Part shown: positions 7,644 to 24,770 of the stretch, in pieces | Layout of the letters: each line of letters starts with the position of its first letter | Numbering within the stretch: the stretch's first letter is position 1 | Virus record (IMG/VR): IMGVR_UViG_2671180298_000004 | DNA from: a virus | Taxonomy: Duplodnaviria > Heunggongvirae > Uroviricota > Caudoviricetes | DNA length: 24,770 bases | Direction: 5' to 3' (one strand) | The notes under the pieces: generated by a model | What the model saw: only the letters and a program-made list of their open reading frames with translations | What the model was told of the DNA's origin: nothing | The model's database searches: none | Position numbers and translations under genes: made by a program

Positions 7644-7657
7644 GCTCCCGAAGGAGC
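7644..7657 (-). terminator. Putative intrinsic terminator hairpin (GCTCC-CGAA-GGAGC) downstream of cspI, with a T-run on the minus strand.
   Basis: 5-bp GC stem followed by TTTTTTGCTT on the minus strand. Confidence 0.45.
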
Positions 7658-8077: not shown

Positions 8078-8439
8078 AATTATTACCTTTTGAAGAAATT
8101 AGCCCTTGGGCAGAATGGTCCGAAAAAAAATATCAGAGAGAAAAACCAACAAGGAAATCTCAAGAGGTACAAATAATAAAATTATAACAATGACTGCTTC
8201 AGATAAATTTGTAACAAACCAGAACACCATTAACGCATGATTAACCACCCATAGCAAGGATTACTTTTGTAAAGAAAAACACAGCAATGAAAGAATAGCT
8301 TTATTTATTAATAAAACGTGTCATTCTGATTAAGACCTTTTATCTTACCCTTAAGATTTCAGGAATTTTGGCTCATGGAAGAGTCCTTTTTATTTAAATT
8401 TTACATTCCGCGATGTAAATGTTCCGATTTAATATTACC

Positions 8440-9463
<1,024 letters not shown>

Positions 9464-9467
<4 letters not shown>

Positions 9468-9775
9468 AGATATTTATGATGAGGACGCTCGTGCTTATTG
9501 GCAGGATTTTCAATCTTAAAGGAGTACTGATGCTGCAGATAAGACTCAACTTTTTCTGACAATTTTTCTGCTACTTCCAGGAAGACTTGCCGGACGCTCC
9601 TTCTGGCTGCTGCCTCATAAAACTCCAGCGCAGCTCCTTCAACACGGTCCATGGCGACATCCAGGTCAAAAATTTCACCGTCAAAGCGTTCTTTGTCCTG
9701 TAAGGCTACAGTTACCGTAACTTTATTCTCAAAATTACGGACTCCTTTCACAACCAGTTCATAGTCTTGAGTCAT
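9464..9775 (-). CDS. ydfR: YdfR-like protein of unknown function (103 aa) within the lysis cassette.
   Basis: ORF track; position between holin and lysozyme; overlaps the lysozyme start by 4 nt. Confidence 0.7.
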
Positions 9776-9779
9776 TGGA

Positions 9780-9995
9780 TTACTCTCCTCTCGCAGCCTT
9801 ACGCCTGTCTTCTTTAATCTTGAAATAAAGATTTGTCAGATACGTCAGCAGGCCAAAAACCAGGCTACCCAGCACACCGATTGCAGCCCACTGTGACGGA
9901 GTTACTTTATCGAGTAACTGCAATGCCCAGAAACCAGCATTACCCGCCGATGTGCCATAGGCAACACCTGTTGTTAACTTATCCATTGATTTCAT
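9780..9995 (-). CDS. essQ: Class II holin / pinholin of the phage 21 S type (71 aa from MKSMDKL; a longer in-frame ORF extends to 10070).
   Basis: Two TM segments and charged C-terminus ...[22 protein letters not shown]; dual-start-like MKSM motif. Confidence 0.8.
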
Positions 9996-10214
9996 ATCCT
10001 CACCCCGATGTACACGGATGGTGCAATATGTTTGAAAAGATCGGAGTCTACGGGGTAGTTTTGACAGCACACGTTGTTCTCAACGGCGCTAAAAAAACAT
10101 ACACATTAAAAATGTGGGTAATTATTTTGAAAGAAAGTCATATATAAAATAATAATACGAGAAATGTTTTCATATTTAGTGTACTGTATACGGCCATTTA
10201 TACAGGAAAAGCCT

Positions 10215-10385
10215 ATGTCAGAACGTAAAAACTCAAAATCACGCCGTAATTATCTCGTTAAATGTTCCTGCCCAAACTGCACCCAAGAGTCAGAACACAG
10301 TTTTTCAAGAGTACAAAAAGGTGCCCTTTTGATCTGCCCTCATTGCAACAAAGTATTCCAGACAAATCTTAAAGCTGTAGCCTGA
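10215..10385 (+). CDS. 56-aa zinc-ribbon protein with two CxxC pairs (CPNC ... CPHC); possibly the Qin small protein YnfU.
   Basis: ATG 10215 with AGGAAA Shine-Dalgarno 5 nt upstream; four Cys in zinc-ribbon spacing; assignment to YnfU is from memory and uncertain. Confidence 0.55.
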   Translation: MSERKNSKSRRNYLVKCSCPNCTQESEHSFSRVQKGALLICPHCNKVFQTNLKAVA

Positions 10386-10440
10386 TTGATTTTATTAGTA
10401 ACAAGTATTTTTTATATTTTAATAATATATTTAAAGCAGA

Positions 10441-10466
10441 TAATAAAAAACCCGCCTGAGCGGGTT
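10441..10466 (-). terminator. Intrinsic terminator downstream of cspB (hairpin AACCCGC-CTGA-GCGGGTT followed by a T-run on the minus strand).
   Basis: Perfect 7-bp GC-rich stem and a TTTTTTATTA tract 3' on the minus strand. Confidence 0.7.
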
Positions 10467-10748
10467 TGAGATTGTGGTGCTTTTTGTGGGAGTCATCCAC
10501 TTACGCACTTTGTTTTGCCATGCCAGCAGTTAGCTTCTGCTGTAAAACTATTCATGCAGCAAACCTGCACTTCACCACAATGGTTAGCATACTTTTCCTG
10601 ATTAAGATTTTGCCAAATATGCTAGCCATTGTTTCATGTATTGGACCTCCTTACTTTTTATTAAAGAGATCCAATATTCACTACTCTGTCCGTATCTCTA
10701 CTCAGGCATCAGCCTTCTTCGTTATCGTATACAGACGAGCGATGAATT

Positions 10749-10964
10749 TTAATCAGTAATGATGACATTTGCTGCTGCAGGACCTTTAGCACCACTCTCT
10801 ATAGAGAAGGTAACCTTTTGACCTTCAAATAAGGTTCGATAATTATCATTCTGAATCGCAGAAAAATGCACAAACACATCTTTACTACCATCAACAGGAG
10901 AAATAAAGCCGAAACCTTTATCAGCGTTAAACCATTTTACTAAACCAGTCATTTTATTTGACAT
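10749..10964 (-). CDS. cspB: Cold shock protein CspB (71 aa).
   Basis: CspA-family sequence [71 protein letters not shown]. Confidence 0.9.
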
Positions 10965-11264
10965 TCTACATTCCTTAACTTGAGCCTTTCGGCATAAATG
11001 GTTTGCATAACAGAAACGACTTCGTACTTAATTGGAGAGACTCAAAGAAGGAATAAGTGAATAACACCTGAAATGAGAACTGCTTTAGTAAACTACTTCG
11101 TATATCGTCTGTTCTTCAAACCGACGCAATCATTAACGCATAGTTGAACATATGAAGCAATGTTTATTTTAGACATCCAGCCATCTTCAACCCCATCAAA
11201 AAACTATAGCTTTCTTCAGGAACGTGTGTATAGTGCGCCAAGTTATCAGTATTAAGGAATTTTT

Positions 11265-11477
11265 TTGTCCCGTAAAATGACAGGAATTGTCAAAACCTTT
11301 GACGGCAAAAGCGGCAAGGGTCTTATCACCCCATCCGATGGTCGTATCGATGTCCAGCTTCATGTTTCAGCGCTCAATCTCCGCGATGCAGAAGAAATTA
11401 CCACCGGATTACGCGTGGAATTTTGCCGGATAAATGGTCTGCGTGGCCCTTCAGCTGCCAATGTTTACCTTTCATGA
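11265..11477 (+). CDS. cspF: Cold shock protein paralog CspF (70 aa), divergent from cspB.
   Basis: CspA-family fold with divergent sequence [39 protein letters not shown]... Confidence 0.9.
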
Positions 11478-11531
11478 GCTATATTAAAGCTTTAATTTCA
11501 GGCCCCATCGGATCACACATGGAGAGTTTTT

Positions 11532-11621
11532 ATGAATAACCCCGTCTGTCTTGATGACTGGTTGATTGGCTTTAAAAGCTTATGCTGTACTTTGGCCGTA
11601 ATAGCTCTGCTAATAATATAA
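11532..11621 (+). CDS. Candidate 29-aa peptide with a hydrophobic C-terminus ([29 protein letters not shown]).
   Basis: ATG 11532 with GGAGAG 7 nt upstream; downstream of cspF and upstream of the terminator near 11772. Confidence 0.25.
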
Positions 11622-11771
11622 TAAGCAGACTCATTGTGTTTAGGGACATTGTACTGGAAGAAAACATTTTAAACATCAGGCAAATAACCAAGTCACCAGC
11701 TAAATAATAAGTTAACAGACATGAGTCCCGGGATGAGATTCAACATTACCATTGCCCCATTTAAAGCACAA

Positions 11772-11800
11772 AACCCGCTCATCAGCGGGTTTTCTACTTT
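11772..11800. terminator. Intrinsic terminator (ACCCGCT-CATC-AGCGGGT) with U-rich flanks on both strands; candidate tR' for a short PR' transcript on the minus strand.
   Basis: 7-bp GC-rich stem, TTTTCTACTTTTT on the plus strand and TTGTGCTTT on the minus strand. Confidence 0.6.
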
Positions 11801-11838
11801 TTCTTAACGTCGGGTATACAAAGCCCATCGTTGAAAAA

Positions 11839-11867
11839 ATTTTATCCATATTTTTTGAAAAATGCAA
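11839..11867 (-). promoter_or_regulatory. Candidate late promoter PR' just downstream of Q: -35 TTGCAT, 17-bp spacer, -10 TAAAAT.
   Basis: Sigma-70-like hexamers with 17-bp spacing read on the minus strand, ~30 bp downstream of the quuQ stop and ~45 bp upstream of the hairpin. Confidence 0.4.
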
Positions 11868-11898
11868 ACATCATGTCGCCATCTTCAGCAAAAATCAT

Positions 11899-12651
11899 TT
11901 ATCTCGTCACCTTCCTCAATTGCGCTTCCGCGTATGCTTCTTCCTGCCAGCACTTTGTTACCAGTTTACCAATGACGTCCGCATACCCCTTATACCACTG
12001 ATAATCGGTCAGGTCTGGTACCAGCTTCTGGACATGACGTCGTGCCAGCGTGGTCGGTAAACGACTAAACCGGTTTCCATTACAACGCCCACAAATCTTA
12101 TATACCGGTACGCCATGAAACCGGGTTCTTTTTTCATCCAGAACAATCCCTTTACCCTTACACCCTCTGCACGCTGTGCTGGCTTCGCCCTTACCATGGC
12201 AATGCTGACATAGTTCCTTCACCCATTCTTCCTTGATTACAGATTCCCCGCGTCTGTAGTGTTTCACCACTTCGCGCAATACATTATAAAATCCCGTACC
12301 TGAACAATGCTCACAGCGAGCCTTACTTGCCGCAGACCTGGAGTAATCAGCAAAGGCAAAACTCACGAGGTAAGGAATAATCTGTAACCGGATTTCTTCA
12401 CTCAATTTGTTCAATGTCGGGTTATCCAGTGCCATCGCGTAATTTAGCAGGCCTTCAATCGCAAACTGAGGGTCCTGAACACCAACTTTTGCCAGAAATA
12501 AGGCCAACCCAAGTGGTGCTTTCGACTGCACCATCCCCTGCGCTGCCATTACATCCGTAATTGTTAAACAACCGGTGCCTGTCGCTGGAGCGTCATCGCT
12601 CAATTTTGGAGATTTTGGGGAGTAATATTTTGGTAAGGCTTCAAGGTTCAT
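11899..12651 (-). CDS. quuQ: Late-gene antiterminator Q (250 aa from ATG 12651; the longer listed ORF overlaps ydfU).
   Basis: Cys-rich zinc-binding region (CEHCSGTG ... CQHCHGKG ... CRGCKGKG ... CGRCNG) typical of Q proteins; GGAG Shine-Dalgarno 9 nt upstream of ATG 12651. Confidence 0.85.
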   Translation of the reverse strand: MNLEALPKYYSPKSPKLSDDAPATGTGCLTITDVMAAQGMVQSKAPLGLALFLAKVGVQDPQFAIEGLLNYAMALDNPTLNKLSEEIRLQIIPYLVSFAFADYSRSAASKARCEHCSGTGFYNVLREVVKHYRRGESVIKEEWVKELCQHCHGKGEASTACRGCKGKGIVLDEKRTRFHGVPVYKICGRCNGNRFSRLPTTLARRHVQKLVPDLTDYQWYKGYADVIGKLVTKCWQEEAYAEAQLRKVTR

Positions 12652-12664
12652 GCTCGTTCTCCAC

Positions 12665-13714
12665 TTACGCCAGTACGCCAATTGTCAGCGCGCGATCGAT
12701 AAAACGAAATATCAGCTCCAGTTGGGAGCCATACTTATCTTCAAATGCCACTGTATCCGTATGCAGCTCGTTGTGATGCTTTCTGCACAAAGGCAACACA
12801 AAGAGATCATGTGCTTTTGTTCCCATTCCGCCCTGCCCGTGACCAATCAGATGATGCGGATCGTCGGCTGGCATACCGCAGCAAGCACACGGCTGTGTCT
12901 TAACCCAACGTGTGTATTTCTCCTTAACCCAGCGGCGACGTTTAGGCAGCTTCATGAAAGATTCCGGAGACTCTGGATCAACGGTGATGCTTACCACCGT
13001 CTTTTCCTGTGGTGATTTTTGTTGCTGGTGGGCGTAAGGCAACGGTGCAAGATTTTTTGTGCGTTGTTTCAATATGCTGGTGGCGGTCTGCTCTCCCGGT
13101 ACGATGTCGCTTTCGCGGTACACCGAGCAGATTTTTTCCGCTGGTAATCCCAGCGAACGACGCGATACAGCCTCAGGTAGTGCATCCACCACCTGATTGC
13201 AGACCGCCCACCAGGATAATTCAGCCAAAGATAATTCCCGCTCCTGCGTACCGCTTATTGCGTGACGGATGACGTCAATCACCCATGCTGTCAGATTTTG
13301 TTGAGCAAGCAGCTCCAGTGATTCCGATGTCTGGTCACGCAGTTGGTTGTCGCAGTGCCAGCACAACACCATTGCGCCGGTACCATAACGGTGAATGACT
13401 GTTTCAGTGTGATGGTAATCGCCATTAGGCCACTGGCAGGATGTAACATGACGTAATAGCCAGTCGGACAATGCGCCAACGCCGCCAGCAGCACGAATCA
13501 CCCGTTCGTTACTAAAAAACGGCAGCAATGTTTTGTCTTCCGCCAGCGGCTGGCGAACGGCAGGAACGACTCCGGATGGCAGATTACGCATGCTTTTTGG
13601 TTCCGGTTCCACCAGCACTCGAGGATTATGAAATATCTGTATGGATTCACGGCCCGGCTTAAGGACCACCAGCCCAAGCTCAGGCACCAGAACAGGTCTA
13701 AGTAATACCCGCAC
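12665..13714 (-). CDS. ydfU: YdfU (DUF968-type) protein, 349 aa from a GTG start; C-terminus carries an HNH-like CxxC ... HH ... H motif.
   Basis: ORF track; C-terminal CACCGMPADDPHHLIGHG ... CRKHHNELH; GTG start at 13714 gives the 349-aa length I recall for K-12. Confidence 0.75.
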   Translation of the reverse strand: MRVLLRPVLVPELGLVVLKPGRESIQIFHNPRVLVEPEPKSMRNLPSGVVPAVRQPLAEDKTLLPFFSNERVIRAAGGVGALSDWLLRHVTSCQWPNGDYHHTETVIHRYGTGAMVLCWHCDNQLRDQTSESLELLAQQNLTAWVIDVIRHAISGTQERELSLAELSWWAVCNQVVDALPEAVSRRSLGLPAEKICSVYRESDIVPGEQTATSILKQRTKNLAPLPYAHQQQKSPQEKTVVSITVDPESPESFMKLPKRRRWVKEKYTRWVKTQPCACCGMPADDPHHLIGHGQGGMGTKAHDLFVLPLCRKHHNELHTDTVAFEDKYGSQLELIFRFIDRALTIGVLA

Positions 13715-13715
13715 G

Positions 13716-13994
13716 TTACCTCCAGATCCGTTGCTGGAAAGTGCGGGACGCACGTGGTGGGCGTTCGGAATAAGGCAGCCTGACAGAGATTATCCAGTGC
13801 CGATAGTCGAGACTGAGAGCTTTCTTAACCTCGAACCCGCGCCTGCGGTAAGAATGAATCAGCCATTCGGCCTGTTCTGCAGTGCATGGAGGGTGCTGGA
13901 ACCATTCAGACTTGAATGCGTGAGAATACCGCCCGTGCGTGCAGGCAAGAACGGGCGAATTATCAGAATTGTAATATTTTGCGTTGCGTGCCAT
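13716..13994 (-). CDS. Hypothetical 92-aa protein translationally coupled to ydfU.
   Basis: GGAG Shine-Dalgarno 8 nt upstream of ATG 13994; stop TAA at 13716-13718 lies 1 nt before the ydfU GTG start. I cannot place this gene in my memory of the K-12 map. Confidence 0.55.
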   Translation of the reverse strand: MARNAKYYNSDNSPVLACTHGRYSHAFKSEWFQHPPCTAEQAEWLIHSYRRRGFEVKKALSLDYRHWIISVRLPYSERPPRASRTFQQRIWR

Positions 13995-14060
13995 CGGTTT
14001 TCTCCGGTGGCACGGTGTTACTCAGCGGGAGTTCAGCCCCGCGCAAGATTGTAGATGAGT

Positions 14061-14312
14061 TTATTCTCCTGAAAAAGCAGAAAAGCCAGCTTTTATTCCG
14101 ATCTCTTTCAATGCCTGTAATGAAGTGACAAACTCACCTTCGCGCAAGATAAATCCGTCCGTGACCCGAGCATCCACAAAATTAATTAACGCAGCCCCAT
14201 TCTTTCGCAAACACATAATGCGGTAATGACTAACAAGATTTCCATTTTCAACGCACACAGCATAGAGGCCATCTTCACAAAAAATTTTACGCAGTTCTTC
14301 GATGTTCATCAT
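14061..14312 (-). CDS. rem: Rem-like protein (83 aa) upstream of nothing else before the hokD terminator; own promoter likely.
   Basis: GGAAGGA Shine-Dalgarno 5 nt upstream of ATG 14312; length matches the 83 aa I recall for Rem; name assigned by size and position, not by remembered sequence. Confidence 0.55.
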   Translation of the reverse strand: MMNIEELRKIFCEDGLYAVCVENGNLVSHYRIMCLRKNGAALINFVDARVTDGFILREGEFVTSLQALKEIGIKAGFSAFSGE

Positions 14313-14390
14313 CAGAATCCTTCCGGATAATTAGCTCTCCCCTTTAAGGGACCATCCCTCTTATCCCTGCGCGCTACTTAAGTATTTTTG

Positions 14391-14420
14391 ATTCTATTCC
14401 GGCACCGTCCAGAACTTCAA
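14391..14420 (-). promoter_or_regulatory. Candidate sigma-70 promoter for rem (-35 TTGAAG, 18-bp spacer, -10 TAGAAT).
   Basis: Hexamers read on the minus strand about 75 nt upstream of the rem start, just downstream of the hokD terminator. Confidence 0.3.
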
Positions 14421-14430
14421 ACGCGTTGAA

Positions 14431-14460
14431 AATAAAAACAAAAACCCGCCGAAGCGGGTT
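14431..14460 (-). terminator. Intrinsic terminator of the relB-relE-hokD operon (AACCCGC-TTCG-GCGGGTT followed by a long T-run on the minus strand).
   Basis: 7-bp GC stem with tetraloop and TTTTGTTTTTATTTT 3' on the minus strand, 70 nt after the hokD stop. Confidence 0.75.
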
Positions 14461-14528
14461 AAGTGCGGGTGCGTTGAGGATGCCTGCCACATCAGAGGTG
14501 GCGAGGGATTTCTCCCCCGCCGGGTCTC

Positions 14529-14684
14529 TTACTCCTCAGGTTCGTAAGCTGTGAAGACAGCGACCTCCGTCTGGCCGGTTCGGATTCGTACCTCGCAGAG
14601 GTCTTTCCTCGTTACCAGTGCCGTCACTATGACGGTTAAACAGATGACGATCAGGGCGATTAACATCGCCTTTTGCTGCTTCAT
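14529..14684 (-). CDS. hokD: Hok-family type I toxin HokD (RelF), 51 aa.
   Basis: Manual translation MKQQKAMLIALIVICLTVIVTALVTRKDLCEVRIRTGQTEVAVFTAYEPEE; below the ORF-track cutoff. Confidence 0.9.
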   Translation of the reverse strand: MKQQKAMLIALIVICLTVIVTALVTRKDLCEVRIRTGQTEVAVFTAYEPEE

Positions 14685-14755
14685 AGCCTGCTTCTCCTGT
14701 CAACGCAAAGCAGAAGTGTCACCTTCGGTGCGAAACAGAGATGTCATGCTTTGGT

Positions 14756-15043
14756 TCAGAGAATGCGTTTGACCGCCTCGCTATATACTTCCGAGCGTTC
14801 TCTTTTCCCAACAGAAATCACGAAAACGACAACTTTCTCGTCTATAACCTGGTATACAAGGCGATAGCCTGAAGACCGGAGCTTAATCTTGTAACAATCA
14901 GGCATACCACGGAGCTTGTTTGCTTCAATCCGGGGTGACTCAAGTACTTCAACCAGCTTCTTTTTCAACTGTTCACGTACCGTCGAGCCCAGCTTTCGCC
15001 ATTCCTTTAGTGCCCGCTCGTCAAAATCCAGAAAATACGCCAT
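14756..15043 (-). CDS. relE: RelE mRNA-interferase toxin (95 aa).
   Basis: Sequence MAYFLDFDERALKEWRKLGSTVREQLKKKLVEVLESPRIEANKLRGMPDCYKIKLRSSGYRLVYQVIDEKVVVFVISVGKRERSEVYSEAVKRIL matches RelE from memory. Confidence 0.95.
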   Translation of the reverse strand: MAYFLDFDERALKEWRKLGSTVREQLKKKLVEVLESPRIEANKLRGMPDCYKIKLRSSGYRLVYQVIDEKVVVFVISVGKRERSEVYSEAVKRIL

Positions 15044-15282
15044 CAGAGTTCATCCAGCGTCACACGTACTGGCTTAGGATTACGAAGCCGTTCTTTCACT
15101 ATCTCCACAAGTTCAGCATCTTCATCACTCAGGAGTGTCTGTTTGAACGGCAAGCGTTCATTGTCAGCGATATACTCGAGCATGAGACGAAGCGCTTCAG
15201 AAGGAGTTACACCCATTTTTTCAAGCGCGGCGTAAGAACGCGCTTTAAGTTCATCGTCAATACGCAGGTTAATGCTACCCAT
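15043..15282 (-). CDS. relB: RelB antitoxin (79 aa).
   Basis: Sequence MGSINLRIDDELKARSYAALEKMGVTPSEALRLMLEYIADNERLPFKQTLLSDEDAELVEIVKERLRNPKPVRVTLDEL; stop overlaps the relE start. Confidence 0.95.
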   Translation of the reverse strand: MGSINLRIDDELKARSYAALEKMGVTPSEALRLMLEYIADNERLPFKQTLLSDEDAELVEIVKERLRNPKPVRVTLDEL

Positions 15283-15284
15283 GT

Positions 15285-15360
15285 CTTACACCTCTTGTAA
15301 TTACAAATGTCATTACAAGTATCGCACTACAACATGCTTAGGGCAAGTCACGAAGGAAGT
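15285..15360 (-). promoter_or_regulatory. relBE promoter/operator region (relO) with repeated TTGTAAT / ATTACAA hexads and an AAGAGGTG Shine-Dalgarno.
   Basis: Plus strand 15294-15320 reads CTTGTAATTACAAATGTCATTACAAG, containing inverted TTGTAAT repeats directly upstream of relB. Confidence 0.6.
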
Positions 15361-15612
15361 CAGAAAGTAGTCGTAAGAACGGTGATCACTGTCCGCTTTG
15401 TGCCAGGAGCAGCCATTGCTAAGTCCATCCTGTATTGTGCAGGTCAGCTCGTTTTTAAAGAGTCCGGCCATCATCTTACTGGTACAGACACCATATACTT
15501 TGTGACGGTCAGGCTACATATGCACAACTCAACTTATTCATCTATTTTTTGCTTTAGCATGTCAGTGTTGCTTTCTCGTCGGCGGGTGAGCGGTGACCTG
15601 ACCTGTCGATAA
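15307..15612 (+). CDS. ydfV: YdfV-like ORF (101 aa); doubtful because its 5' end overlaps the relBE operator.
   Basis: ORF track; length matches the K-12 annotation as I recall it; no clear Shine-Dalgarno. Confidence 0.35.
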   Translation: MSLQVSHYNMLRASHEGSQKVVVRTVITVRFVPGAAIAKSILYCAGQLVFKESGHHLTGTDTIYFVTVRLHMHNSTYSSIFCFSMSVLLSRRRVSGDLTCR

Positions 15613-15764
15613 AGGAACGTAACACGTTTTATGCAACACCCGCATGCGGCAGAAAATTATTGCCGAACGTTTACCCCTGTCAACAAGCTTTACTTTCTGA
15701 GGCGCGCCAGCCCGCGAGGAAAACAATCTGAACATCAAACAATTAATGACACAAGAAATACGAT

Positions 15765-15791
15765 TAAAGATTTTTTTGTGCATGCCGATAG
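15765..15791 (+). promoter_or_regulatory. Sigma-28 (FliA) promoter of flxA: TAAAGATT - 11 nt - GCCGATAG.
   Basis: Close match to the sigma-28 consensus TAAAGTTT-N11-GCCGATAA, 24 nt upstream of the flxA start; AAGGAGA Shine-Dalgarno at 15803-15809. Confidence 0.75.
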
Positions 15792-15814
15792 TGCTTTTTT
15801 AAAAGGAGAAATCT

Positions 15815-16147
15815 ATGTCTGTCACAATTCAGGGAAATACCTCAACCGTTATTTCAAACAACTCCGCCCCGGAAGGAACATCAGAAATAGCCAAAATCAC
15901 AAGACAAATTCAGGTGCTGACTGAAAAGCTTGGGAAAATCTCATCGGAAGAGGGGATGACGACACAGCAGAAAAAAGAAATGGCTGCATTGGTACAGAAG
16001 CAAATTGAAAGCCTCTGGGCTCAACTGGAGCAGTTGTTAAGGCAGCAGGCAGAGAAAAAGAATGAAGACGCGACAGTTCAGCCTGATAAAAAAGAAGAGA
16101 AAAAAGACGATACAAATACCGCTGGCACCATTGATATTTACGTCTAA
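15815..16147 (+). CDS. flxA: FlxA (110 aa), FliA-regulated protein.
   Basis: ORF track; Gln/Glu/Lys-rich coiled-coil-like protein; preceded by a sigma-28 promoter. Confidence 0.9.
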   Translation: MSVTIQGNTSTVISNNSAPEGTSEIAKITRQIQVLTEKLGKISSEEGMTTQQKKEMAALVQKQIESLWAQLEQLLRQQAEKKNEDATVQPDKKEEKKDDTNTAGTIDIYV

Positions 16148-16161
16148 GTGACAGCCGTATT

Positions 16162-16184
16162 GTGGCCCTCATCGGGCCACTTTT
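16162..16184 (+). terminator. Intrinsic terminator of flxA (GTGGCCC-TCATC-GGGCCAC followed by TTTT).
   Basis: Perfect 7-bp GC stem and T-run 15 nt after the flxA stop. Confidence 0.8.
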
Positions 16185-16340
16185 CGCCATCAGCCTTTTC
16201 TTTAAAGACATATTATCTTTGTATCATTTCTGATAGTTAACATTACAAGATATAAGTAATGGACGCACTCCCAATTAGTCTATTTAAATCGCCACGAGTT
16301 TAACTGACAACCCATGATCAATTATGAATTGCAACTATTT

Positions 16341-17958
16341 CTGTAGTCACTTTTGTGGGGACAGTCCACAAAACTGCCAACTTCCGCTTCTTGCTCTTAG
16401 CGGACATTAGCATAGGCTATTTACCATAACGCCTCATTACGCGCACCGCCCAGACTGACTCAGCGCGTTTCTGGCATATCCCCGGTAAAACAAGTAACAA
16501 ACCACCCGAAAATGAACACCAGAAACGCGACTTAAGAATCTACCCTATGAATGGATATGCACTCAACCGAATCGATCTTGGTTTCAATCTTTTTTATCGG
16601 GATCAGGCTTCTTTTTAGGTAACTTCGGGGGCTTAACTTGCTGATGACTTTGCGTTCGGCGCGTAAGCCAGGGATGGTCAGCTTTAGGTTTAACATAGTA
16701 TTTTGAGCGTAAATCAATACGGGCATTATCCACTCGTTCATGGACACTCTTTTCATCATCCAGTGGTATAGGCTCCGGGCCATCAACATACTTTTCCCAG
16801 CCCAGCGCTTTCCCGTCATACAGAACGTTAATTTCACCGTCAAAGTTCTCGCATACAGTAACAACCGAATGCCTAAGTCGATATCCCCGGCCCTCACTGC
16901 GTACCTGAAACGCACTGCTTTTGTACTGGAAAGTGAGATTTTTAGACAGAACGCGCTTCGCCTGTAGGCTGAAGATATAACCCAGTTCCTCTTCAGAATG
17001 GTGCACATCAAGATGAGCATTATCAGTAGTACGAGGCGACGTAGCGAACCGGTTGTTATAGGCTTCAATAAAGGTCGGCAACCATGCATTTGCTGTTTCA
17101 ATATCACTGATATTCTGAAGCCGCATTTCTTTGACCAGCCTGTCCTGTAGTGTCTGATTGGCGCGCTCTACCCGCCCTTTTGCCTGCGGGCTGTTGGCAT
17201 GGATTGGCTCGATGCCCAGTGTCTTTATCGCACGAGTGAACTGGGTCAGCTCACCTTCCCGCTCTGGGTTATTTACCCTGAATATACTGTGTCTATCAGA
17301 GTAGAGAGCGAGCGGTACGCCATGATCATTAAGGTAACCCCGGAGGGTTTCCATGTAAGCCCGGGTTGTTTCAGCAGGCACAAAACGCAACGCCATCAAC
17401 GCACTGGTGGCATCATCAATGAAAACGATCAGTGTACATCTGGGGCCTCGATTTTCAAACCAGTCATGAGGTGAGCCATCAATCTGGATCAGTTCACCGT
17501 AAGATGGTCGTCGCATGCGGCGTTGATATATACGGGCAATTTTACGACGGCGTTCACGCCATAACCCCTCTTCTATCATCCACTTTCTGAGAGTTTCAAC
17601 GGATAAAGATAAACCGTGTATCTCGCGCAATTTTTCGCACGCAAACGTAGGTCCAAAATCAGCGTAACGGCCTTTGAGGAGTGAAATTACTGTTGCTCTG
17701 AATTCAGTAGAAAAGGAATTATTAGGACGCTTTCCACGTCGGTGGGAAACCAGACCAGAAGGCCCTTCATTTCTATACCGTTGCACCAGACGTTTAACCT
17801 GCCGAATAGAAATGCCAATGCGTGCCGCAGCTTGTTCCTGAATAATCTGAAGTCGGTGGAGTTCCTTATGACTCATCGTAACAGTCTCTTTGATCATGAA
17901 AAATCCCCCAGAGAATTGTCTGGGGACATTTTAGAATGGTTCAAAGGGGACATTACAG
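16341..17958 (-). mobile_element. Insertion sequence (~1.6 kb) carrying one DDE transposase gene; ends approximate, with imperfect terminal inverted repeats beginning CTGTA(G/A)T.
   Basis: Single 437-aa transposase ORF; candidate imperfect inverted repeats at 16341-16360 and 17939-17958; no clear target-site duplication found by eye. Confidence 0.45.
16584..17897 (-). CDS. DDE transposase (integrase-core / rve type with N-terminal HTH; IS481- or ISNCY-like), 437 aa.
   Basis: N-terminal HTH (IGISIRQVKRLVQRY); DDE core with ...IQIDGSPHDW..., ...IVFIDDATS... and ...QAKGRVERANQTLQD...; it is not the transposase of IS1, IS2, IS3, IS4, IS5, IS30, IS150 or IS186 as I recall them. Confidence 0.85.
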   Translation of the reverse strand: MIKETVTMSHKELHRLQIIQEQAAARIGISIRQVKRLVQRYRNEGPSGLVSHRRGKRPNNSFSTEFRATVISLLKGRYADFGPTFACEKLREIHGLSLSVETLRKWMIEEGLWRERRRKIARIYQRRMRRPSYGELIQIDGSPHDWFENRGPRCTLIVFIDDATSALMALRFVPAETTRAYMETLRGYLNDHGVPLALYSDRHSIFRVNNPEREGELTQFTRAIKTLGIEPIHANSPQAKGRVERANQTLQDRLVKEMRLQNISDIETANAWLPTFIEAYNNRFATSPRTTDNAHLDVHHSEEELGYIFSLQAKRVLSKNLTFQYKSSAFQVRSEGRGYRLRHSVVTVCENFDGEINVLYDGKALGWEKYVDGPEPIPLDDEKSVHERVDNARIDLRSKYYVKPKADHPWLTRRTQSHQQVKPPKLPKKKPDPDKKD

Positions 17959-18231
17959 CTTGGTGTTAACAATAGCCTGCTTCTCCGTGCCTTTCGGCAC
18001 GTAAGAGGCTAACCTACATGTGTCTAGCATGAAATTGGCCTCAGATTAATGTTAAGCGTCTTGCAGGACGCGTAATGTTAACTGGGGCTTTTCTCTATCT
18101 GCCGTTGGTGTCCATGCCCGAGGCAGATAGCCTCAAGCACCCGCAGTCATTCTACTTAACTAAGATTTCCCCGCAAACCGTTTTTGTCCAGCACAGTAAA
18201 TATCCAACTAAACCAATGGAGTTCGCTGTAT

Positions 18232-18411
18232 TTACCGCCAGTATTCAATGCACATGACCGCCATGAACACCCCTAAAAAAAGGGCATTTATATATCCAAA
18301 TATTAATATCAAAACATCAACTTTTTCCATATACCTTGCTGTGAAGATGATGGGCATACATGATGCGAACAACCAGAACGCAACAAACAAAAACTGCAAT
18401 GCGTTTTTCAT
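18232..18411 (-). CDS. Small two-TM membrane protein (59 aa from MKNALQF...).
   Basis: Consensus Shine-Dalgarno AGGAGG 5 nt upstream of ATG 18411; two hydrophobic helices (FLFVAFWLFASCMPIIF and LILIFGYINALFLGVFMAVM). Confidence 0.5.
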   Translation of the reverse strand: MKNALQFLFVAFWLFASCMPIIFTARYMEKVDVLILIFGYINALFLGVFMAVMCIEYWR

Positions 18412-18665
18412 TATTCCTCCTACAATCAATGTGCAATTACATTTAAACACACCTCAATTTGGCCGGACATATAAATATCTAAACCAGAAAAAATCACTTA
18501 CATAGCGTTACAAACTCTTTAGTCTAAAGGTTCATCGTAAAACATTCCCCATACTTATCAGTCCGTTCCGCGCCAGGTAGCTCATTGCCTTATCTGGCAA
18601 CCTGTAATCAGGTTTCCGCTTTTTCAGTTGGCTGGTCGTTTAACCGACATAGTTAATCCATTAAT

Positions 18666-18953
18666 CTAGTTGCCGGATGTTGGTGGATTTTCGCGTTTTA
18701 GTTGTTCATAAAAGTGCACAGCTTTAACCAGTTCTTCTGATGTAACTGGGACTGGTGAGGCAGTGAATAAGGCCTGAATTTGATAGTTCGGCCTGTCGTT
18801 ACAATCCTCTTTTTTCGGTACATATTTCCAGTCACCAGACCACTACTTCCCCTGAAAGTCCGTAACGCCTTTTTTCACGTAGCGATATCGCCATGCCACT
18901 GGTTTTGCTTGCCCCGCCGTTTCATGCCCTTCCTGATAATTAATCTCGCTCAT
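18666..18953 (-). pseudogene. 95-codon reading frame interrupted by a single in-frame amber codon (TAG at 18843-18845, minus strand).
   Basis: Manual translation MSEINYQEGHETAGQAKPVAWRYRYVKKGVTDFQGK-(TAG)-WSGDWKYVPKKEDCNDRPNYQIQALFTASPVPVTSEELVKAVHFYEQLKRENPPTSGN; divergent from ydfA. Confidence 0.45.
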
Positions 18954-19089
18954 TCATCGCCCCACTCATCACAATATGCTTCGACCGGAGTTTTTCCCGC
19001 TTCATAGTCATCACGCTAGGATTCGACATCAGCAGCACTTCCACCGCGTAACTCACCATACCCCAGCGTTAAGGGGAAATGAGGTCAGC

Positions 19090-19245
19090 ATGGATACTAT
19101 CGATCTTGGCAACAACGAATCTCTGGTGTACGGCGTGTTTCCAAACCAGGACGGCACGTTCACCGCAATGACGTATACCAAAAGCAAAACGTTTAAAACC
19201 GAAAATGGTGCCCGTCGCTGGCTGGAAAGAAACTCAGGTGAGTGA
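19090..19245 (+). CDS. ydfA: YdfA (51 aa).
   Basis: GAGG Shine-Dalgarno 6 nt upstream of ATG 19090; sequence MDTIDLGNNESLVYGVFPNQDGTFTAMTYTKSKTFKTENGARRWLERNSGE; ydfA-ydfB-ydfC-dicF-dicB spacing matches my memory of K-12. Confidence 0.8.
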   Translation: MDTIDLGNNESLVYGVFPNQDGTFTAMTYTKSKTFKTENGARRWLERNSGE

Positions 19246-19246
19246 T

Positions 19247-19375
19247 ATGGATTTCGACACAATCATGGAAAAGGCTTACGAAGAATACTTCGAAGGCCTT
19301 GCCGAAGGCGAAGAAGCTCTCAGCTTCAGTGAGTTTAAACAGGCGCTTTCCAGTTCGGCAAAATCTAACGGCTGA
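19247..19375 (+). CDS. ydfB: YdfB (42 aa).
   Basis: Starts 1 nt after the ydfA stop; sequence MDFDTIMEKAYEEYFEGLAEGEEALSFSEFKQALSSSAKSNG. Confidence 0.75.
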   Translation: MDFDTIMEKAYEEYFEGLAEGEEALSFSEFKQALSSSAKSNG

Positions 19376-19404
19376 TAAGCGAAACAGCACCGCGAGGAAT
19401 CAGT

Positions 19405-19623
19405 ATGCAGAAACGAGAACCCGTCATCATCGCGCCAGACTATACCGATGATGAACTTTATGAGTGGATGCGCCAGAAAATTAATGCAGCGCAGGATCTG
19501 AAATGGGCTAATGAAGCCAGGGCTAAGCAGGCTGAAAATCTGTCCGCTCTGGAGCAGGATATCACCAATCTGGAAAAAGCAGCGGCATTAAGCATTGCCA
19601 GAATGATTACATACCCGCGTTAG
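19405..19623 (+). CDS. ydfC: YdfC (72 aa).
   Basis: ORF track; sequence MQKREPVIIAPDYTDDELYEWMRQKINAAQDLKWANEARAKQAENLSALEQDITNLEKAAALSIARMITYPR. Confidence 0.8.
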   Translation: MQKREPVIIAPDYTDDELYEWMRQKINAAQDLKWANEARAKQAENLSALEQDITNLEKAAALSIARMITYPR

Positions 19624-19963
19624 TAGCTAATCAACAAAGCTAAGGTTAGTAATTAAGGAGTTCTCCACGGGTGAGGTGGAGTGCGTGCGCCGGACACGGG
19701 TGCGCATCCGGAACTGACAGTTTACTGAAAGGATATTTCCCTGAAAAGTCAGACCATAACGCGAAAGCGCACGGCGAGGTAGCTGGTTCATAGATAGCCT
19801 GTCGTTAAATTTTCGTCGACCGTGCGCTTCCGGTTGTGGCAACCCGCGAAATGGCGCGGCGGTAAGTATGGCGGGGTTATTCCTTCCCCGTTGAGGACAC
19901 CGGGTTGTCAGGTTGACCATACGCTTAAGTGACAACCCCGCTGCAACGCCCTCTGTTATCAAT

Positions 19964-20016
19964 TTTCTGGTGACGTTTGGCGGTATCAGTTTTACTCCGT
20001 GACTGCTCTGCCGCCC
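19964..20016 (+). ncRNA. dicF: DicF small RNA (53 nt) with 3' terminator hairpin and T-run.
   Basis: Sequence TTTCTGGTGACGTTTGGCGGTATCAGTTTTACTCCGTGACTGCTCTGCCGCCC followed by TTTTT matches DicF from memory; GGCGG...CCGCC stem. Confidence 0.9.
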
Positions 20017-20190
20017 TTTTTAAAGTGAATTTTGTGATGTGGTGAATGCGGCTGAGCGCACGCGGAACAGTTAAAACCAAAAACAGTGTTATGGGTGGAT
20101 TCTCTGTATCCGGCGTTAATTGTTAACTAGTTAACGTCACCTGGAGGCACCAGGCACTGCATCACAAAATTCATTGTTGAGGACGCGATA

Positions 20191-20379
20191 ATGAAAACGT
20201 TATTACCAAACGTTAATACGTCTGAAGGTTGTTTTGAAATTGGTGTCACTATCAGTAACCCAGTATTTACTGAAGATGCCATTAACAAGAGAAAACAAGA
20301 ACGGGAGCTATTAAATAAAATATGCATTGTTTCAATGCTGGCTCGTTTACGTCTGATGCCAAAAGGATGTGCACAATGA
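20191..20379 (+). CDS. dicB: Cell-division inhibitor DicB (62 aa).
   Basis: Sequence MKTLLPNVNTSEGCFEIGVTISNPVFTEDAINKRKQERELLNKICIVSMLARLRLMPKGCAQ. Confidence 0.9.
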   Translation: MKTLLPNVNTSEGCFEIGVTISNPVFTEDAINKRKQERELLNKICIVSMLARLRLMPKGCAQ

Positions 20380-20567
20380 ATTCAGCATTTGTGCTTGTTC
20401 TGACAGTTTTTCTTGTTTCCGGAGAGCCAGTTGATATTGCAGTCAGTGTTCACAGGACAATGCAGGAGTGTATGACTGCAGCAACCGAACAGAAAATTCC
20501 CGGTAACTGTTACCCGGTCGATAAAGTTATTCACCAGGATAATATCGAAATCCCGGCAGGTCTTTAA
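20376..20567 (+). CDS. ydfD: YdfD (63 aa) small hydrophobic N-terminus protein; start overlaps the dicB stop (ATGA).
   Basis: Internal ATG of ORF 20322-20567; sequence MNSAFVLVLTVFLVSGEPVDIAVSV... Confidence 0.8.
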   Translation: MNSAFVLVLTVFLVSGEPVDIAVSVHRTMQECMTAATEQKIPGNCYPVDKVIHQDNIEIPAGL

Positions 20568-20659
20568 AACAGTTCCGTAATAAATATCCGGTTTCATTCT
20601 TATATGCCAGCAATGGCAGGGATTTGTTCATCCTTAAATCTGTCATGAGGTTAAAACAA

Positions 20660-23131
20660 ATGAGTAAAGTCTTTATTTGCGCCGCTATTCCTGACGAACT
20701 GGCAACAAGGGAAGAAGGCGCTGTGGCTGTAGCCACAGCCATTGAAGCTGGCGACGAACGCCGTGCTCGAGCAAAATTTCACTGGCAATTCCTGGAACAT
20801 TATCCGGCTGCTCAGGACTGCGCTTATAAATTTATTGTCTGCGAGGATAAACCTGGCATACCCCGCCCTGCCCTCGATTCATGGGATGCTGAATATATGC
20901 AGGAAAACCGCTGGGATGAGGAGTCTGCTTCTTTTGTCCCGGTTGAGACTGAATCCGATCCGATGAACGTCACTTTTGACAAGCTGGCCCCTGAAGTACA
21001 GAACGCTGTCATGGTTAAGTTCGACACATGTGAAAACATCACCGTTGATATGGTTATTAGCGCACAGGAATTGTTGCAGGAAGACATGGCAACATTCGAC
21101 GGACATATCGTTGAAGCGTTGATGAAAATGCCAGAAGTTAACGCCATGTATCCGGAGCTTAAGTTGCACGCCATTGGGTGGGTTAAGCATAAATGTATTC
21201 CTGGTGCTAAATGGCCCGAAATTCAGGCAGAGATGCGCATCTGGAAAAAACGTCGCGAAGGTGAACGCAAGGAAACCGGAAAATACACGTCTGTTGTTGA
21301 TCTCGCCCGCGCCAGAGCCAATCAACAGTACACTGAAAATTCAACAGGAAAAATCAGCCCGGTCATTGCTGCCATTCATCGCGAATACAAGCAGACATGG
21401 AAAACACTGGATGACGAACTGGCCTACGCTCTCTGGCCTAGTGATGTGGATGCCGGAAACATTGACGGCAGCATCCATCGCTGGGCAAAAAAAGAAGTTA
21501 TCGACAACGACCGCGAAGACTGGAAGCGTATCTCGGCATCAATGCGCAAACAGCCTGATGCCCTTCGCTACGACCGCCAAACTATTTTTGGCCTTGTCCG
21601 TGAGCGTCCGATCGACATTCACAAAGATCCCGTAGCACTGAACAAATATATCTGCGAATACCTGACGACAAAGGGCGTGTTTGAGAATGAAGAAACAGAC
21701 CTGGGCACTGTTGATGTTCTCCAGTCATCAGAAACACAAACTGATGCAGTGGAAACTGAGGTATCTGATATCCCAAAAAATGAAACCGCGCCGGAAGCTG
21801 AACCATCTGTAGAGCGTGAGGGGCCGTTCTATTTCCTCTTCGCAGATAAGGACGGAGAAAAATACGGTCGCGCAAACAAACTCTCTGGTCTGGATAAGGC
21901 ACTGGCTGCTGGCGCCACTGAAATCACAAAAGAAGAATATTTTGCCCGAAAAAATGGCACATACACGGGCTTACCGCAAAATGTAGATACCGCTGAAGAT
22001 TCAGAACAACCAGAGCCGATAAAAGTTACCGCTGACGAAGTAAACAAAATTATGCAGGCAGCCAATATCAGCCAGCCTGACGCCGATAAGTTGCTTGCTG
22101 CATCACGTGGTGAATTTGTTGAAGGGATTAGTGACCCGAATGATCCGAAATGGGTTAAGGGGCTCCAGACCCGCGATTCTGTGAACCAGAACCAGCATGA
22201 ATCGGAACGGAACTACCAAAAAGCGGAACAAAACAGTCCAAATGCGTTACAAAACGAGCCAGAAACGAAACAGCCTGAACCAGTAGCGCAACAGGAAGTG
22301 GAAAAAGTCTGCACCGCCTGCGGTCAGACCGGCGGCGGCAACTGCCCTGATTGTGGCGCGGTGATGGGCGACGCAACATACCAAGAAACATTCGATGAAG
22401 AGTATCAGGTTGAAGTTCAGGAAGATGATCCGGAGGAAATGGAAGGCGCTGAACATCCACACAAGGAGAACACTGGCGGCAATCAGCATCACAATAGCGA
22501 TAATGAAACTGGCGAGACGGCAGATCACCCAATTAAGGTGAACGGTCATCACGAAATCACATCCACCAGCAGGACGTGTGACCATCTAATGATCGACCTT
22601 GAAACCATGGGAAAAAATCCTGATGCCCCGATCATCTCAATAGGTGCAATATTTTTCGATCCGCAAACCGGAGATATGGGACCGGAATTTAGTAAGACTA
22701 TCGATCTGGAAACTGCTGGCGGAGTCATTGATCGGGACACCATTAAATGGTGGCTTAAGCAATCACGCGAAGCGCAATCTGCCATTATGACCGATGAAAT
22801 CCCGTTAGATGATGCACTGTTACAATTGCGAGAATTTATCGACGAAAACTCCGGTGAATTTTTTGTTCAGGTTTGGGGAAATGGAGCCAACTTCGACAAC
22901 ACGATTTTGCGCCGTTCATACGAACGGCAGGGGATCCCCTGCCCGTGGCGTTACTACAACGATCGCGATGTACGCACAATCGTTGAGCTGGGGAAAGCCA
23001 TAGACTTCGATGCCAGAACGGCTATTCCATTCGAAGGTGAGCGCCATAATGCACTTGATGACGCCCGTTACCAGGCAAAATACGTTTCAGTTATCTGGCA
23101 AAAACTGATCCCGAGTCAGGCTGATTCTTAA
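20660..23131 (+). CDS. RecE-like protein (823 aa from ATG 20660) with a C-terminal DEDDh (DnaQ-like) 3'-5' exonuclease domain; apparently the intact form of the gene truncated in K-12 (ydfE).
   Basis: Central segment (...KLLAASRGEFVEGISDPNDPKWVKG...CTACGQTGGGNCPDCGAVMGDATYQETFDEE...) matches the non-catalytic middle of Rac RecE from memory. C-terminal ~185 aa carry Exo I (MIDLETMG), Exo II (GNGANFDNTIL) and Exo III (HNALDDARYQA) motifs. Confidence 0.85.
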   Translation: MSKVFICAAIPDELATREEGAVAVATAIEAGDERRARAKFHWQFLEHYPAAQDCAYKFIVCEDKPGIPRPALDSWDAEYMQENRWDEESASFVPVETESDPMNVTFDKLAPEVQNAVMVKFDTCENITVDMVISAQELLQEDMATFDGHIVEALMKMPEVNAMYPELKLHAIGWVKHKCIPGAKWPEIQAEMRIWKKRREGERKETGKYTSVVDLARARANQQYTENSTGKISPVIAAIHREYKQTWKTLDDELAYALWPSDVDAGNIDGSIHRWAKKEVIDNDREDWKRISASMRKQPDALRYDRQTIFGLVRERPIDIHKDPVALNKYICEYLTTKGVFENEETDLGTVDVLQSSETQTDAVETEVSDIPKNETAPEAEPSVEREGPFYFLFADKDGEKYGRANKLSGLDKALAAGATEITKEEYFARKNGTYTGLPQNVDTAEDSEQPEPIKVTADEVNKIMQAANISQPDADKLLAASRGEFVEGISDPNDPKWVKGLQTRDSVNQNQHESERNYQKAEQNSPNALQNEPETKQPEPVAQQEVEKVCTACGQTGGGNCPDCGAVMGDATYQETFDEEYQVEVQEDDPEEMEGAEHPHKENTGGNQHHNSDNETGETADHPIKVNGHHEITSTSRTCDHLMIDLETMGKNPDAPIISIGAIFFDPQTGDMGPEFSKTIDLETAGGVIDRDTIKWWLKQSREAQSAIMTDEIPLDDALLQLREFIDENSGEFFVQVWGNGANFDNTILRRSYERQGIPCPWRYYNDRDVRTIVELGKAIDFDARTAIPFEGERHNALDDARYQAKYVSVIWQKLIPSQADS

Positions 23132-23203
23132 TGTTCAACTGTCGCCGGTTGTGACTGGTATTCTGCAACCGGCGCTCGTCTGATGTAAGAGATAAAGAAA
23201 TCG

Positions 23204-23455
23204 ATGAGCGAAGTAATCATGATTGTCTCTCCCGGCAAATGGGTATCCGAAGAGCAGTTAATTGCGCTGAAAGGAATAAAAAAAGGTACGTTAAAAAAGG
23301 CCCGGGAAAAATCGTTTATGGAAGGAAGGGAATATAAGCATGTCGCTCATGACGGTATGCCATGGGATAACAGTCCATGCTTTTACAACCTGGAAGAAAT
23401 TGATCGCTGGATTGAGCGCCAGGCATCAGCGAGACCAAGACGTCATCTTACTTGA
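23204..23455 (+). CDS. Putative excisionase / small DNA-binding protein (83 aa) immediately upstream of int.
   Basis: ORF track; position between the recE-like gene and the integrase; basic, likely DNA-binding. Confidence 0.5.
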   Translation: MSEVIMIVSPGKWVSEEQLIALKGIKKGTLKKAREKSFMEGREYKHVAHDGMPWDNSPCFYNLEEIDRWIERQASARPRRHLT

Positions 23456-23474
23456 CTAAAAGCCACACTAACTA

Positions 23475-24770
23475 ATGAGAGAAGTTGAAATGAAATATCC
23501 GACAGGCGTGGAAAACCATGGAGGGAAATTACGTATCTGGTTTGTTTATAAAGACGTAAGAGTCAGGGAAAATCTGGGGGTTCCTGACACAGCAAAAAAC
23601 AGGCGCGTTGCAGGTGAACTACGCTCCTCTGTTTGTTACGCAATAAAAACTGGTGTTTTCGACTATGCAAAACAGTTTCCCTCCTCACGCAATCTGGAAA
23701 AATTTGGTGAGGCCCGACAAGATTTAACCATAAAAGAACTGGCTGAAAAATTTCTGGCACTGAAAGAAACTGAAGTCGCCAAAACATCACTCAACACATA
23801 CCGTGCCGTCATCAAAAATATCCTGAGCATAATCGGTGAAAAAAATCTTGCCTCATCGATTAATAAAGAAAAATTACTGGAGGTTCGTAAAGAGTTACTG
23901 ACTGGATACCAGATCCCCAAAAGTAACTATATTGTTACACAACCAGGGAGATCGGCTGTAACTGTAAATAATTACATGACAAATCTTAACGCCGTGTTCC
24001 AGTTTGGTGTTGATAACGGTTACCTGGCAGATAATCCGTTTAAGGGGATCTCGCCATTAAAGGAATCAAGAACCATTCCGGATCCTCTTTCGCGGGAAGA
24101 ATTTATCCGTCTTATCGATGCGTGCAGAAATCAGCAAGCAAAAAATTTATGGTGTGTTTCTGTTTATACTGGAGTTCGCCCTGGTGAGCTGTGTGCACTT
24201 GGATGGGAGGACATAGATCTGAAAAATGGAACAATGATGATCAGGAGAAATTTAGCAAAAGACCGTTTCACGGTACCAAAAACACAGGCGGGAACCAATC
24301 GGGTCATTCATCTTATTAAGCCAGCAATCGACGCTCTCCGGAGTCAGATGACATTAACGAGACTGAGCAAAGAGCATATCATTGATGTTCACCTCAGAGA
24401 GTATGGCAGAACAGAAAAACAAAAATGCACCTTTGTTTTTCAACCTGAAGTGTCAGCGAGAGTAAAAAATTATGGTGACCATTTTACCGTTGACTCAATA
24501 AGGCAGATGTGGGACGCAGCGATAAAACGTGCCGGACTCCGCCATCGAAAATCATATCAGTCGAGACATACTTATGCCTGCTGGTCGCTGACAGCTGGTG
24601 CTAACCCGGCATTTATAGCAAACCAGATGGGCCATGCAGATGCGCAAATGGTATTTCAGGTATACGGAAAATGGATGTCTGAAAACAATAATGCACAGGT
24701 AGCTTTGTTAAATACACAGTTAAGCGAGTTTGCCCCAACCATGCCCCATAACGAAGCAATGAAAAATTAA
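23475..24770 (+). CDS. Tyrosine integrase (431 aa; a start at MKYPTG, nt 23490, is also plausible).
   Basis: C-terminal catalytic region with ...HRKSYQSRHTYACWSL... and ...HADAQMVFQVYGKWM... (R-H-R-Y type motifs); stop codon is the last three bases of the window. Confidence 0.9.
   Translation: MREVEMKYPTGVENHGGKLRIWFVYKDVRVRENLGVPDTAKNRRVAGELRSSVCYAIKTGVFDYAKQFPSSRNLEKFGEARQDLTIKELAEKFLALKETEVAKTSLNTYRAVIKNILSIIGEKNLASSINKEKLLEVRKELLTGYQIPKSNYIVTQPGRSAVTVNNYMTNLNAVFQFGVDNGYLADNPFKGISPLKESRTIPDPLSREEFIRLIDACRNQQAKNLWCVSVYTGVRPGELCALGWEDIDLKNGTMMIRRNLAKDRFTVPKTQAGTNRVIHLIKPAIDALRSQMTLTRLSKEHIIDVHLREYGRTEKQKCTFVFQPEVSARVKNYGDHFTVDSIRQMWDAAIKRAGLRHRKSYQSRHTYACWSLTAGANPAFIANQMGHADAQMVFQVYGKWMSENNNAQVALLNTQLSEFAPTMPHNEAMKN

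Follow-up and report, generated by a model that had tools for sequence, protein, structure and literature searches.

A Qin-type prophage allele that carries the dicBF operon and lacks dicA, dicC and the dicBp promoter

The dicBF operon and the deletion upstream of ydfA

The virus record IMGVR_UViG_2671180298_000004 of IMG/VR was analyzed over its entire length of 24,770 bases (the window) with respect to the dicBF operon, ydfA-ydfB-ydfC-dicF-dicB-ydfD, of the Qin prophage. The window is 100% identical to sequence of Escherichia coli SCU-118 (human rectal swab, USA) and E. coli CPE35 (pig). It represents a whole Qin-type cryptic prophage, reaching from the truncated ydfJ to the int end beside rspB, and occupies the same chromosomal site (ydfJ to rspB) as Qin in K-12. 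As outlined in Table 1, all six genes of the operon are present in the K-12 order. Window positions 19059-21426 align without gaps to K-12 1648477-1650844, with only two mismatches (19772 and 20129), both of them intergenic. The DicF small RNA matched Rfam family RF00039 over its full length (19965-20016, plus strand; 76.7 bits versus a gathering score of 48). Hence, the first-pass annotation of this DNA, which had reported the six genes with the spacing of K-12, is borne out by a gapless alignment with two single-nucleotide differences and identical products. From the identity with K-12 and the published function, the DicB and DicF products of the window would inhibit cell division if expressed.

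Two details of the dicF-dicB spacer were observed. Position 20129, located 62 nt upstream of dicB, is an A in the window and a G in K-12, E. coli C and ATCC 8739; the A converts GTTAACTGGTTAAC into the perfect palindrome GTTAACTAGTTAAC. Moreover, 20014-20223 (plus strand) gave a sub-threshold match to STnc100, a Salmonella small RNA family (33.7 bits versus a gathering score of 47).

According to the K-12 annotation, dicC and dicA lie directly upstream of ydfA. Both genes are absent from the window, and the upstream position is taken by a minus-strand pseudogene, a small open reading frame (ORF) with two hydrophobic stretches and an ISNCY-family transposase ORF. The first-pass annotation had described the same arrangement, as an amber-interrupted minus-strand ORF, a small protein with two transmembrane segments and an insertion sequence (IS). 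The amber codon TAG of the pseudogene is at 18843-18845, and a frameshift is present in addition; the membrane topology of the small ORF was judged by eye.

Comparison by blastn with the corresponding locus of E. coli C (L002) revealed three colinear blocks: window 11800-18105 corresponds to L002 1-6306, 18098-19060 to L002 7524-8486 and 19059-24770 to L002 9860-15571. The gap between the first and second block is an ISSen4 insertion in E. coli C. The gap between the second and third is a segment of 1,373 bp (L002 8487-9859) that is absent from the window. Relative to ATCC 8739, the fullest form found, 3,627 bp are absent. As the deletion in the window wholly encloses the separate 2,254-bp deletion of E. 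coli C, either the E. coli C form or the ATCC 8739 form could be the direct ancestor. The joint reads caccaTA/cccc, and its parents, caccaTAgtcc and ccgcTAcccc, have only TA in common.

The deleted DNA comprises ydaT' (L002 8594-9019), dicC (L002 9003-9233), the operator Oc (L002 9247-9266), dicA (L002 9317-9724) and most of the 166-bp dicA-ydfA spacer (135 bp), leaving 29-31 nt between the joint and the ydfA ATG. Lost with it are the Oc-like repeats at L002 9249, 9760-9777 and 9795-9812, the last of which overlaps the -10 element of dicBp. The operator sequence, TTGTTAGTCATAACTAACAA, was shown to bind DicA (PMC3441716). The divergent dicC promoter was lost in the same event, and both early operons of the prophage are thus without their known promoters.

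In K-12, dicBp is a PL-like promoter situated between dicA and ydfA and equipped with three operators (Ragunathan et al. 2023, PMC10448788). The same study reported that the polycistronic dicBF transcript begins upstream of ydfA, that a dicBp-lacZ fusion was up 22-fold in a dicA deletion, and that primer extension, Northern blots and reverse transcription PCR gave no evidence for another promoter in the operon. The position of dicBp was read from the supplementary primer table of that paper. Primer O-PR241 ends in CATCATCAATGAGTTATCTT (L002 9725-9744) and primer O-PR242 in the complement of TGCATCAACACACCGCACGG (L002 9819-9838). The DicA-repressed dicBp fragment corresponds to L002 9725-9838 (114 bp), a stretch in which K-12 and E. 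coli C are 100% identical, and lies wholly inside the deleted 8487-9859. A further primer, O-PR124, spans CACTTGACCGATATGTTAGTCATGGCTAATCTTGTTTGCA, which contains the promoter TTGACC-17-TAATCT. In a position-weight scan this promoter scored 11.6 bits, a level reached at four plus-strand positions in the whole window.

The remaining DNA was scanned for promoters and operators. No plus-strand promoter above background was found by position-weight scan in 17900-19095, where the best site scored 8.35 bits, and the best promoter-like site within the operon scored 7.75 bits; sites of at least 8 bits occur in the window at 2.6 per kb. A stricter consensus scan of 15600-20700 did not reveal any plus-strand promoter. 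The window holds no Oc-like operator at up to three mismatches, and at up to five mismatches there was a single match, at 8068, versus 2.5 expected by chance. A PL-like promoter with DicA operators between dicA and ydfA, as in K-12, is therefore lacking.

A replacement for the repressor was not found either. Searches of the whole window by tblastn with DicA, DicC and YdfX/YdaT gave noise only (E >= 0.6), and alignment revealed no counterpart of the K-12 dicC-dicA segment. Pfam and PHROG scans detected no helix-turn-helix (HTH) domain in the ORFs of 17900-19090, the only HTH domains being those of the transposase. The first-pass annotation had named in advance two findings that would speak against it, a DicA-like repressor in a translated search and colinearity of 18000-19090 with K-12 dicC-dicA; neither came to light. 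A relocated copy of the deleted DNA was also sought in the window by blastn with a word size of 7, which returned nothing. The marks of lambdoid immunity, divergent HTH repressor genes and operator repeats flanking the repressor gene, are both missing from the window, which is unusual in having no switch at all.

Table 1. Positions of the features in the window; the dot marks a feature without strand.
Feature	Position	Strand	Basis or remark
rem	14061-14312	-	annotated as WP_000980994.1 in the identical SCU-118 record
ISNCY-family transposase ORF	16584-17897	-	Pfam HTH_32, HTH_29, HTH_28, rve_3; RefSeq annotation
Terminator-like hairpin, 3' of the sok-like RNA	17926-17905	-	terminator scan
sok-like structured RNA (CssrC)	17971-18142	-	Rfam RF01794, 104.1 bits versus gathering score 59
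Small ORF with two hydrophobic stretches	18232-18450	-	ORF list; 72 aa, or 59 aa from an internal ATG
phrog_660-like pseudogene	18532-18953	-	RefSeq "frameshifted; internal stop"; phrog_660 E = 8.8e-29
Deletion joint, 2-bp TA microhomology	19059-19060	.	blastn against E. coli C and ATCC 8739; parent and product sequences
Remaining 3' part of the dicBF leader, with the ribosome-binding region of ydfA	19061-19089	+	alignment, sequence; inside the leader GTTCCGCTACCCC...
ydfA	19090-19245	+	protein identical to K-12
ydfB	19247-19375	+	protein identical to K-12
ydfC	19405-19623	+	protein identical to K-12
dicF small RNA, 53 nt	19964-20016	+	identical to K-12
dicB	20191-20379	+	protein identical to K-12
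ydfD	20376-20567	+	protein identical to K-12
Exonuclease, xis, int (distal part of the same leftward operon)	20660-24770	+	SCU-118 annotation; exonuclease 20660-23131, Pfam Rv2179c-like domain

Predicted silence of the operon and alternative explanations

One deletion took dicA and dicC together with the sole known dicBF promoter, and we consider it probable that the operon is silent by loss of this promoter. An illegitimate event, joining the ends at a 2-bp TA, would have cut out the entire genetic switch as one block: the Cro-like dicC, Oc, dicA as the CI-like repressor gene, and the PL-like dicBp along with the operators of this promoter. The genes ydfABC-dicF-dicB-ydfD are intact, start 29-31 nt past the joint without a promoter and would be untranscribed or transcribed only through weak read-through. 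In this way the cell could survive without DicA, which K-12 requires to hold DicB and DicF off. Loss of dicA alone is expected to be harmful, because dicA is treated as an essential gene in K-12 and its deletion was built only in a strain deleted for dicBF; dicBF+ cells that switch dicBp on form no colonies (PMC10448788). The joint loss of repressor, operators and promoter would therefore have avoided the harm. The first-pass annotation had proposed that silencing here rests on something other than DicA, for example promoter loss. The deletion of dicA, the operators and the entire dicBp fragment agrees with this proposal, and from it we infer that the operon is silent in SCU-118 and CPE35.

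Alternatively, the operon might not be silent, but might give low, tolerated and DicA-independent expression of DicF and DicB from internal promoters or by read-through from the antisense strand of the pseudogene and IS region. This explanation seems unlikely to us, although several points speak for it and hence against promoter loss as the cause of silence. The DicF 5' end is immediately preceded by an extended -10-like element, TGtTATCAA, and a weak candidate promoter, TTCCCG-17-TAGGAT, is located at 18994-19022 (7.05 bits). However, every plus-strand candidate is at background score and none passes the consensus scan. Against read-through, Rho commonly terminates long antisense RNA that is not translated. 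The scans are consensus-based, the stricter one misses dicBp itself, and a weak or non-sigma-70 promoter could escape them. According to PMC11430063, RegulonDB has promoter entries upstream of dicF and of dicB, and a weak chromatin immunoprecipitation signal of DicC upstream of dicF was described in the same paper. An older study, cited in PMC10448788, also suggested a promoter upstream of dicB, whereas the K-12 transcript mapping reported in PMC10448788 itself found dicBp as the only promoter. In addition, the deletion is recent, since its flanks are nearly identical to those of relatives, so that the intact state of dicB and dicF is no evidence of selection.

It is very improbable that the operon is instead silenced in trans by a DicA-like repressor encoded elsewhere, in another prophage or on a plasmid. 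Many E. coli genomes do contain several lambdoid prophages bearing dicBF-like operons, with a median of at least two matches per genome. However, the target operators and the promoter are deleted, and because the operators are gone repression in trans is moot. Furthermore, blastn in distant mode with a chimeric query spanning the joint, a search that covered the chromosome of SCU-118, revealed no further dicC-dicA-like sequence there, and window 17800-20700 used as a query matched this strain at one place only. The chance that the missing segment is an assembly error, the strain in truth having dicA and dicC, is negligible: no supporting point was found, and the joint is clean, has a 2-bp microhomology and is 100% identical in the window and in two complete assemblies that were made independently and come from different hosts, a human in the USA and a pig.

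Other dicA-less alleles and the TA deletion joints

The exact joint of the window was present in 2 of 5,426 complete E. coli genomes, those of SCU-118 and CPE35. A further seven dicA-less alleles were inspected; each of them also lacks dicC and the dicBp fragment. In end points and in gene content they differ from the allele of the window. Three of them keep dicB: SW07091 retains dicF-dicB-ydfD, LR-58-1 retains dicB-ydfD and YZ22PE165 retains dicB, 12 nt from an IS1 end. CT02 and Z226-5 retain ydfABC-dicF without dicB, while W5-6/A37 and D53-1 retain none of these genes. Among the dicA-less alleles examined, the complete set from ydfA to ydfD is found only in the SCU-118/CPE35 allele. That dicBp is lost in every one of them fits a viability constraint on prophage decay. 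A class of genomes with dicBp beside ydfA but without an upstream repressor gene was not seen in a spread sample, which a rare class could escape.

In YZ22PE165, an IS1-associated deletion removed nearly the whole prophage (window 1110-20178). Gone are dicA, dicF and dicBp; dicB and ydfD are kept, with the IS1 end just upstream of the dicB start codon (L013 4930-5020).

Absence of dicA beside dicB is common in itself. A DicA-type arrangement was found in 844 of the 3,821 E. coli genomes with ydfA-like sequence, the remaining ones carrying other HTH, LexA-like or Cro/CI modules. These other immunity modules abut a conserved leader. The homologous stretch begins either at the transcription start of dicBp or at GTTCCGCTACCCC, which precedes the ydfA ATG by 38 nt (L002 9820-9890; L015-L017; window 19052-19089). 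The boundary at GTTCCGCTACCCC lies 7 nt from the deletion joint of the window.

Eleven deletion alleles were compared with the ATCC 8739 form, yielding 12 independent joints (L003-L005, L007, L009-L012 and L014 versus L006). All but one of the 12 cross over exactly at TA, often with TA alone in common. The shared sequence is TA in SCU-118, in LR-58-1 and at the K-12 joint between ydfW and ydfX, TACC and TA in CT02, TCCG(C)TA and CTGTA in Z226-5, ATAC in SW07091, TA(C/G)GCTCT in W5-6/A37, TAA in ETEC4079 and GTA in D53-1. The exception is the joint of E. coli C, which has no microhomology. When random joints were simulated in this region, TA was contained in 5.6% of the joints that had a microhomology of 2 bp or longer; on this expectation, 11 or more TA joints among 12 have a probability of about 2e-13.

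Independent deletions share three of the TA sites, with two or three events at each. The site ccgcTAcccc (window 19059-19060), 30 nt upstream of ydfA, was used in SCU-118, CT02 and Z226-5, and the site ctctgTAtccgg (window 20107-20108), about 90 nt downstream of dicF, in CT02 and Z226-5. CT02 had come to notice through its end point, which was not the case for Z226-5. The third site, ccggaTAgcctcc inside ydaT, forms the right end in K-12 and the left end in LR-58-1. Together, 19059-19060 and 20107-20108 bracket ydfABC-dicF as a discrete block of 1,050 bp. The flanks of the TA joints are G+C-rich and tend to TA-N-C-C.

As a tentative explanation, which we hold to be somewhat less than even in likelihood, a TA-targeted and site-preferring recombination or transposition activity may dismantle Qin-type prophages module by module, the dicA-dicBp deletion being one of its products. 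Candidates are a serine-recombinase-like enzyme with a 2-bp core, a TA-duplicating IS whose insertion was followed by recombination and by its precise excision, or a hot spot of structural nature. Several specific sources were considered and set aside. The crossover site of Din-family invertases, AAACCNNGGTTT, gave one match at chance level, far from pinQ. Terminal inverted repeats of the ISNCY element were represented only by a 12-nt pair (16235-16246/18072-18083). A mosaic boundary as the cause of the re-used end point was rejected as well; the boundary, at GTTCCGC, is close but not identical, 7 nt upstream. Inspection by eye revealed no obvious terminal inverted repeat at the ends of the ydfABC-dicF block, and a literature search for a mechanism behind the TA joints returned nothing relevant.

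Neighboring features and relation to known prophages

Among the other genes of the window, rem is kept intact although DicA, the repressor that it would target, is gone; Rem is an antirepressor of DicA (PMC10448788). The reading frame of the ISNCY transposase is unbroken (437 aa), although in RefSeq it is divided into a partial pseudogene and a separate "ydfW". K-12 ydfW/intK is the 3' end of this transposase gene, a remnant of a TA-joint deletion at window 16768, where homology to K-12 ends. The 12-nt inverted repeats mentioned above are a perfect pair and may mark the ends of the ISNCY element. In ATCC 8739, a 25-bp tandem duplication covers the left repeat (window 16226).

On the minus strand, 18450-17905 contains the small hydrophobic ORF, the sok match and the terminator hairpin, a layout that resembles a type I toxin mRNA. 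The ORF has no Pfam or PHROG match and is unannotated in RefSeq. A hok/sok locus at 17971-18142 was considered and rejected: a sok RNA is recognized there, but no Hok-family toxin ORF lies beside it, as tblastn of the window with six Hok proteins gave hokD (14532-14684) as the sole match. The hokD gene itself gave no sok match. In E. coli C, the ISSen4 element is inserted in the sok-like region, at window 18098-18105. The gene family of the neighboring pseudogene, phrog_660, is a phage gene of unknown function.

The window and K-12 Qin are alike in chromosomal site, in the products and spacing of the dicBF operon and in the neighbors rem, relBE, hokD and flxA. In contrast to Qin, the window is without ydfX/ydaT', dicC, Oc, dicA and dicBp. 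Conversely, K-12 has lost DNA that is still present in the window, namely the ISNCY transposase, the sok-like RNA, the small hydrophobic ORF and the phrog_660 pseudogene, and the exonuclease, xis and int genes of the window are intact, whereas these are disrupted by IS2 in K-12. The prophages of E. coli C and ATCC 8739 are closer, with flanks 99.7-100% identical to the window (left arm to L002 8486, right arm from L002 9860), and likely represent ancestral states. E. coli C differs from the window by the additional 1,373 bp at the joint and by ISSen4. The 3,627 bp that ATCC 8739 has in addition include full ydaT, an O-like gene, DUF977, a methyltransferase and DUF7167.

Similar switches are the cI-PL/PR system of lambda and the Rac prophage, in which racR represses ydaS/ydaT. 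A prophage repressor is essential when it silences toxic early genes, and the host can bear its loss only when the toxin or the target promoter disappears too. Compared with these systems, the co-loss in the window occurs as a polymorphism in nature, where an engineered suppressor would be the usual case, and a single event took both divergent early promoters. The window is the known Qin dicBF system in a "switchless" form that arose naturally by deletion. The literature searched contained no description of natural alleles of this kind.

The switchless allele is what published K-12 genetics predicts and, apart from the TA signature, is ordinary prophage decay. It provides a natural, isogenic-like test of two claims about Qin, that dicA is essential only through silencing dicBp and that dicBp is the sole dicBF promoter, and SCU-118 and CPE35 on the one hand and E. 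coli C on the other are ready-made strains for both. SCU-118 and CPE35 could also reveal phage exclusion dependent on DicB, or regulation dependent on DicF, from a promoterless dicBF cassette. DicA-type immunity is a minority state among E. coli genomes carrying ydfA. If the TA signature truly reflects a specific enzyme, it could matter more widely, for the way in which defective prophages are reduced.

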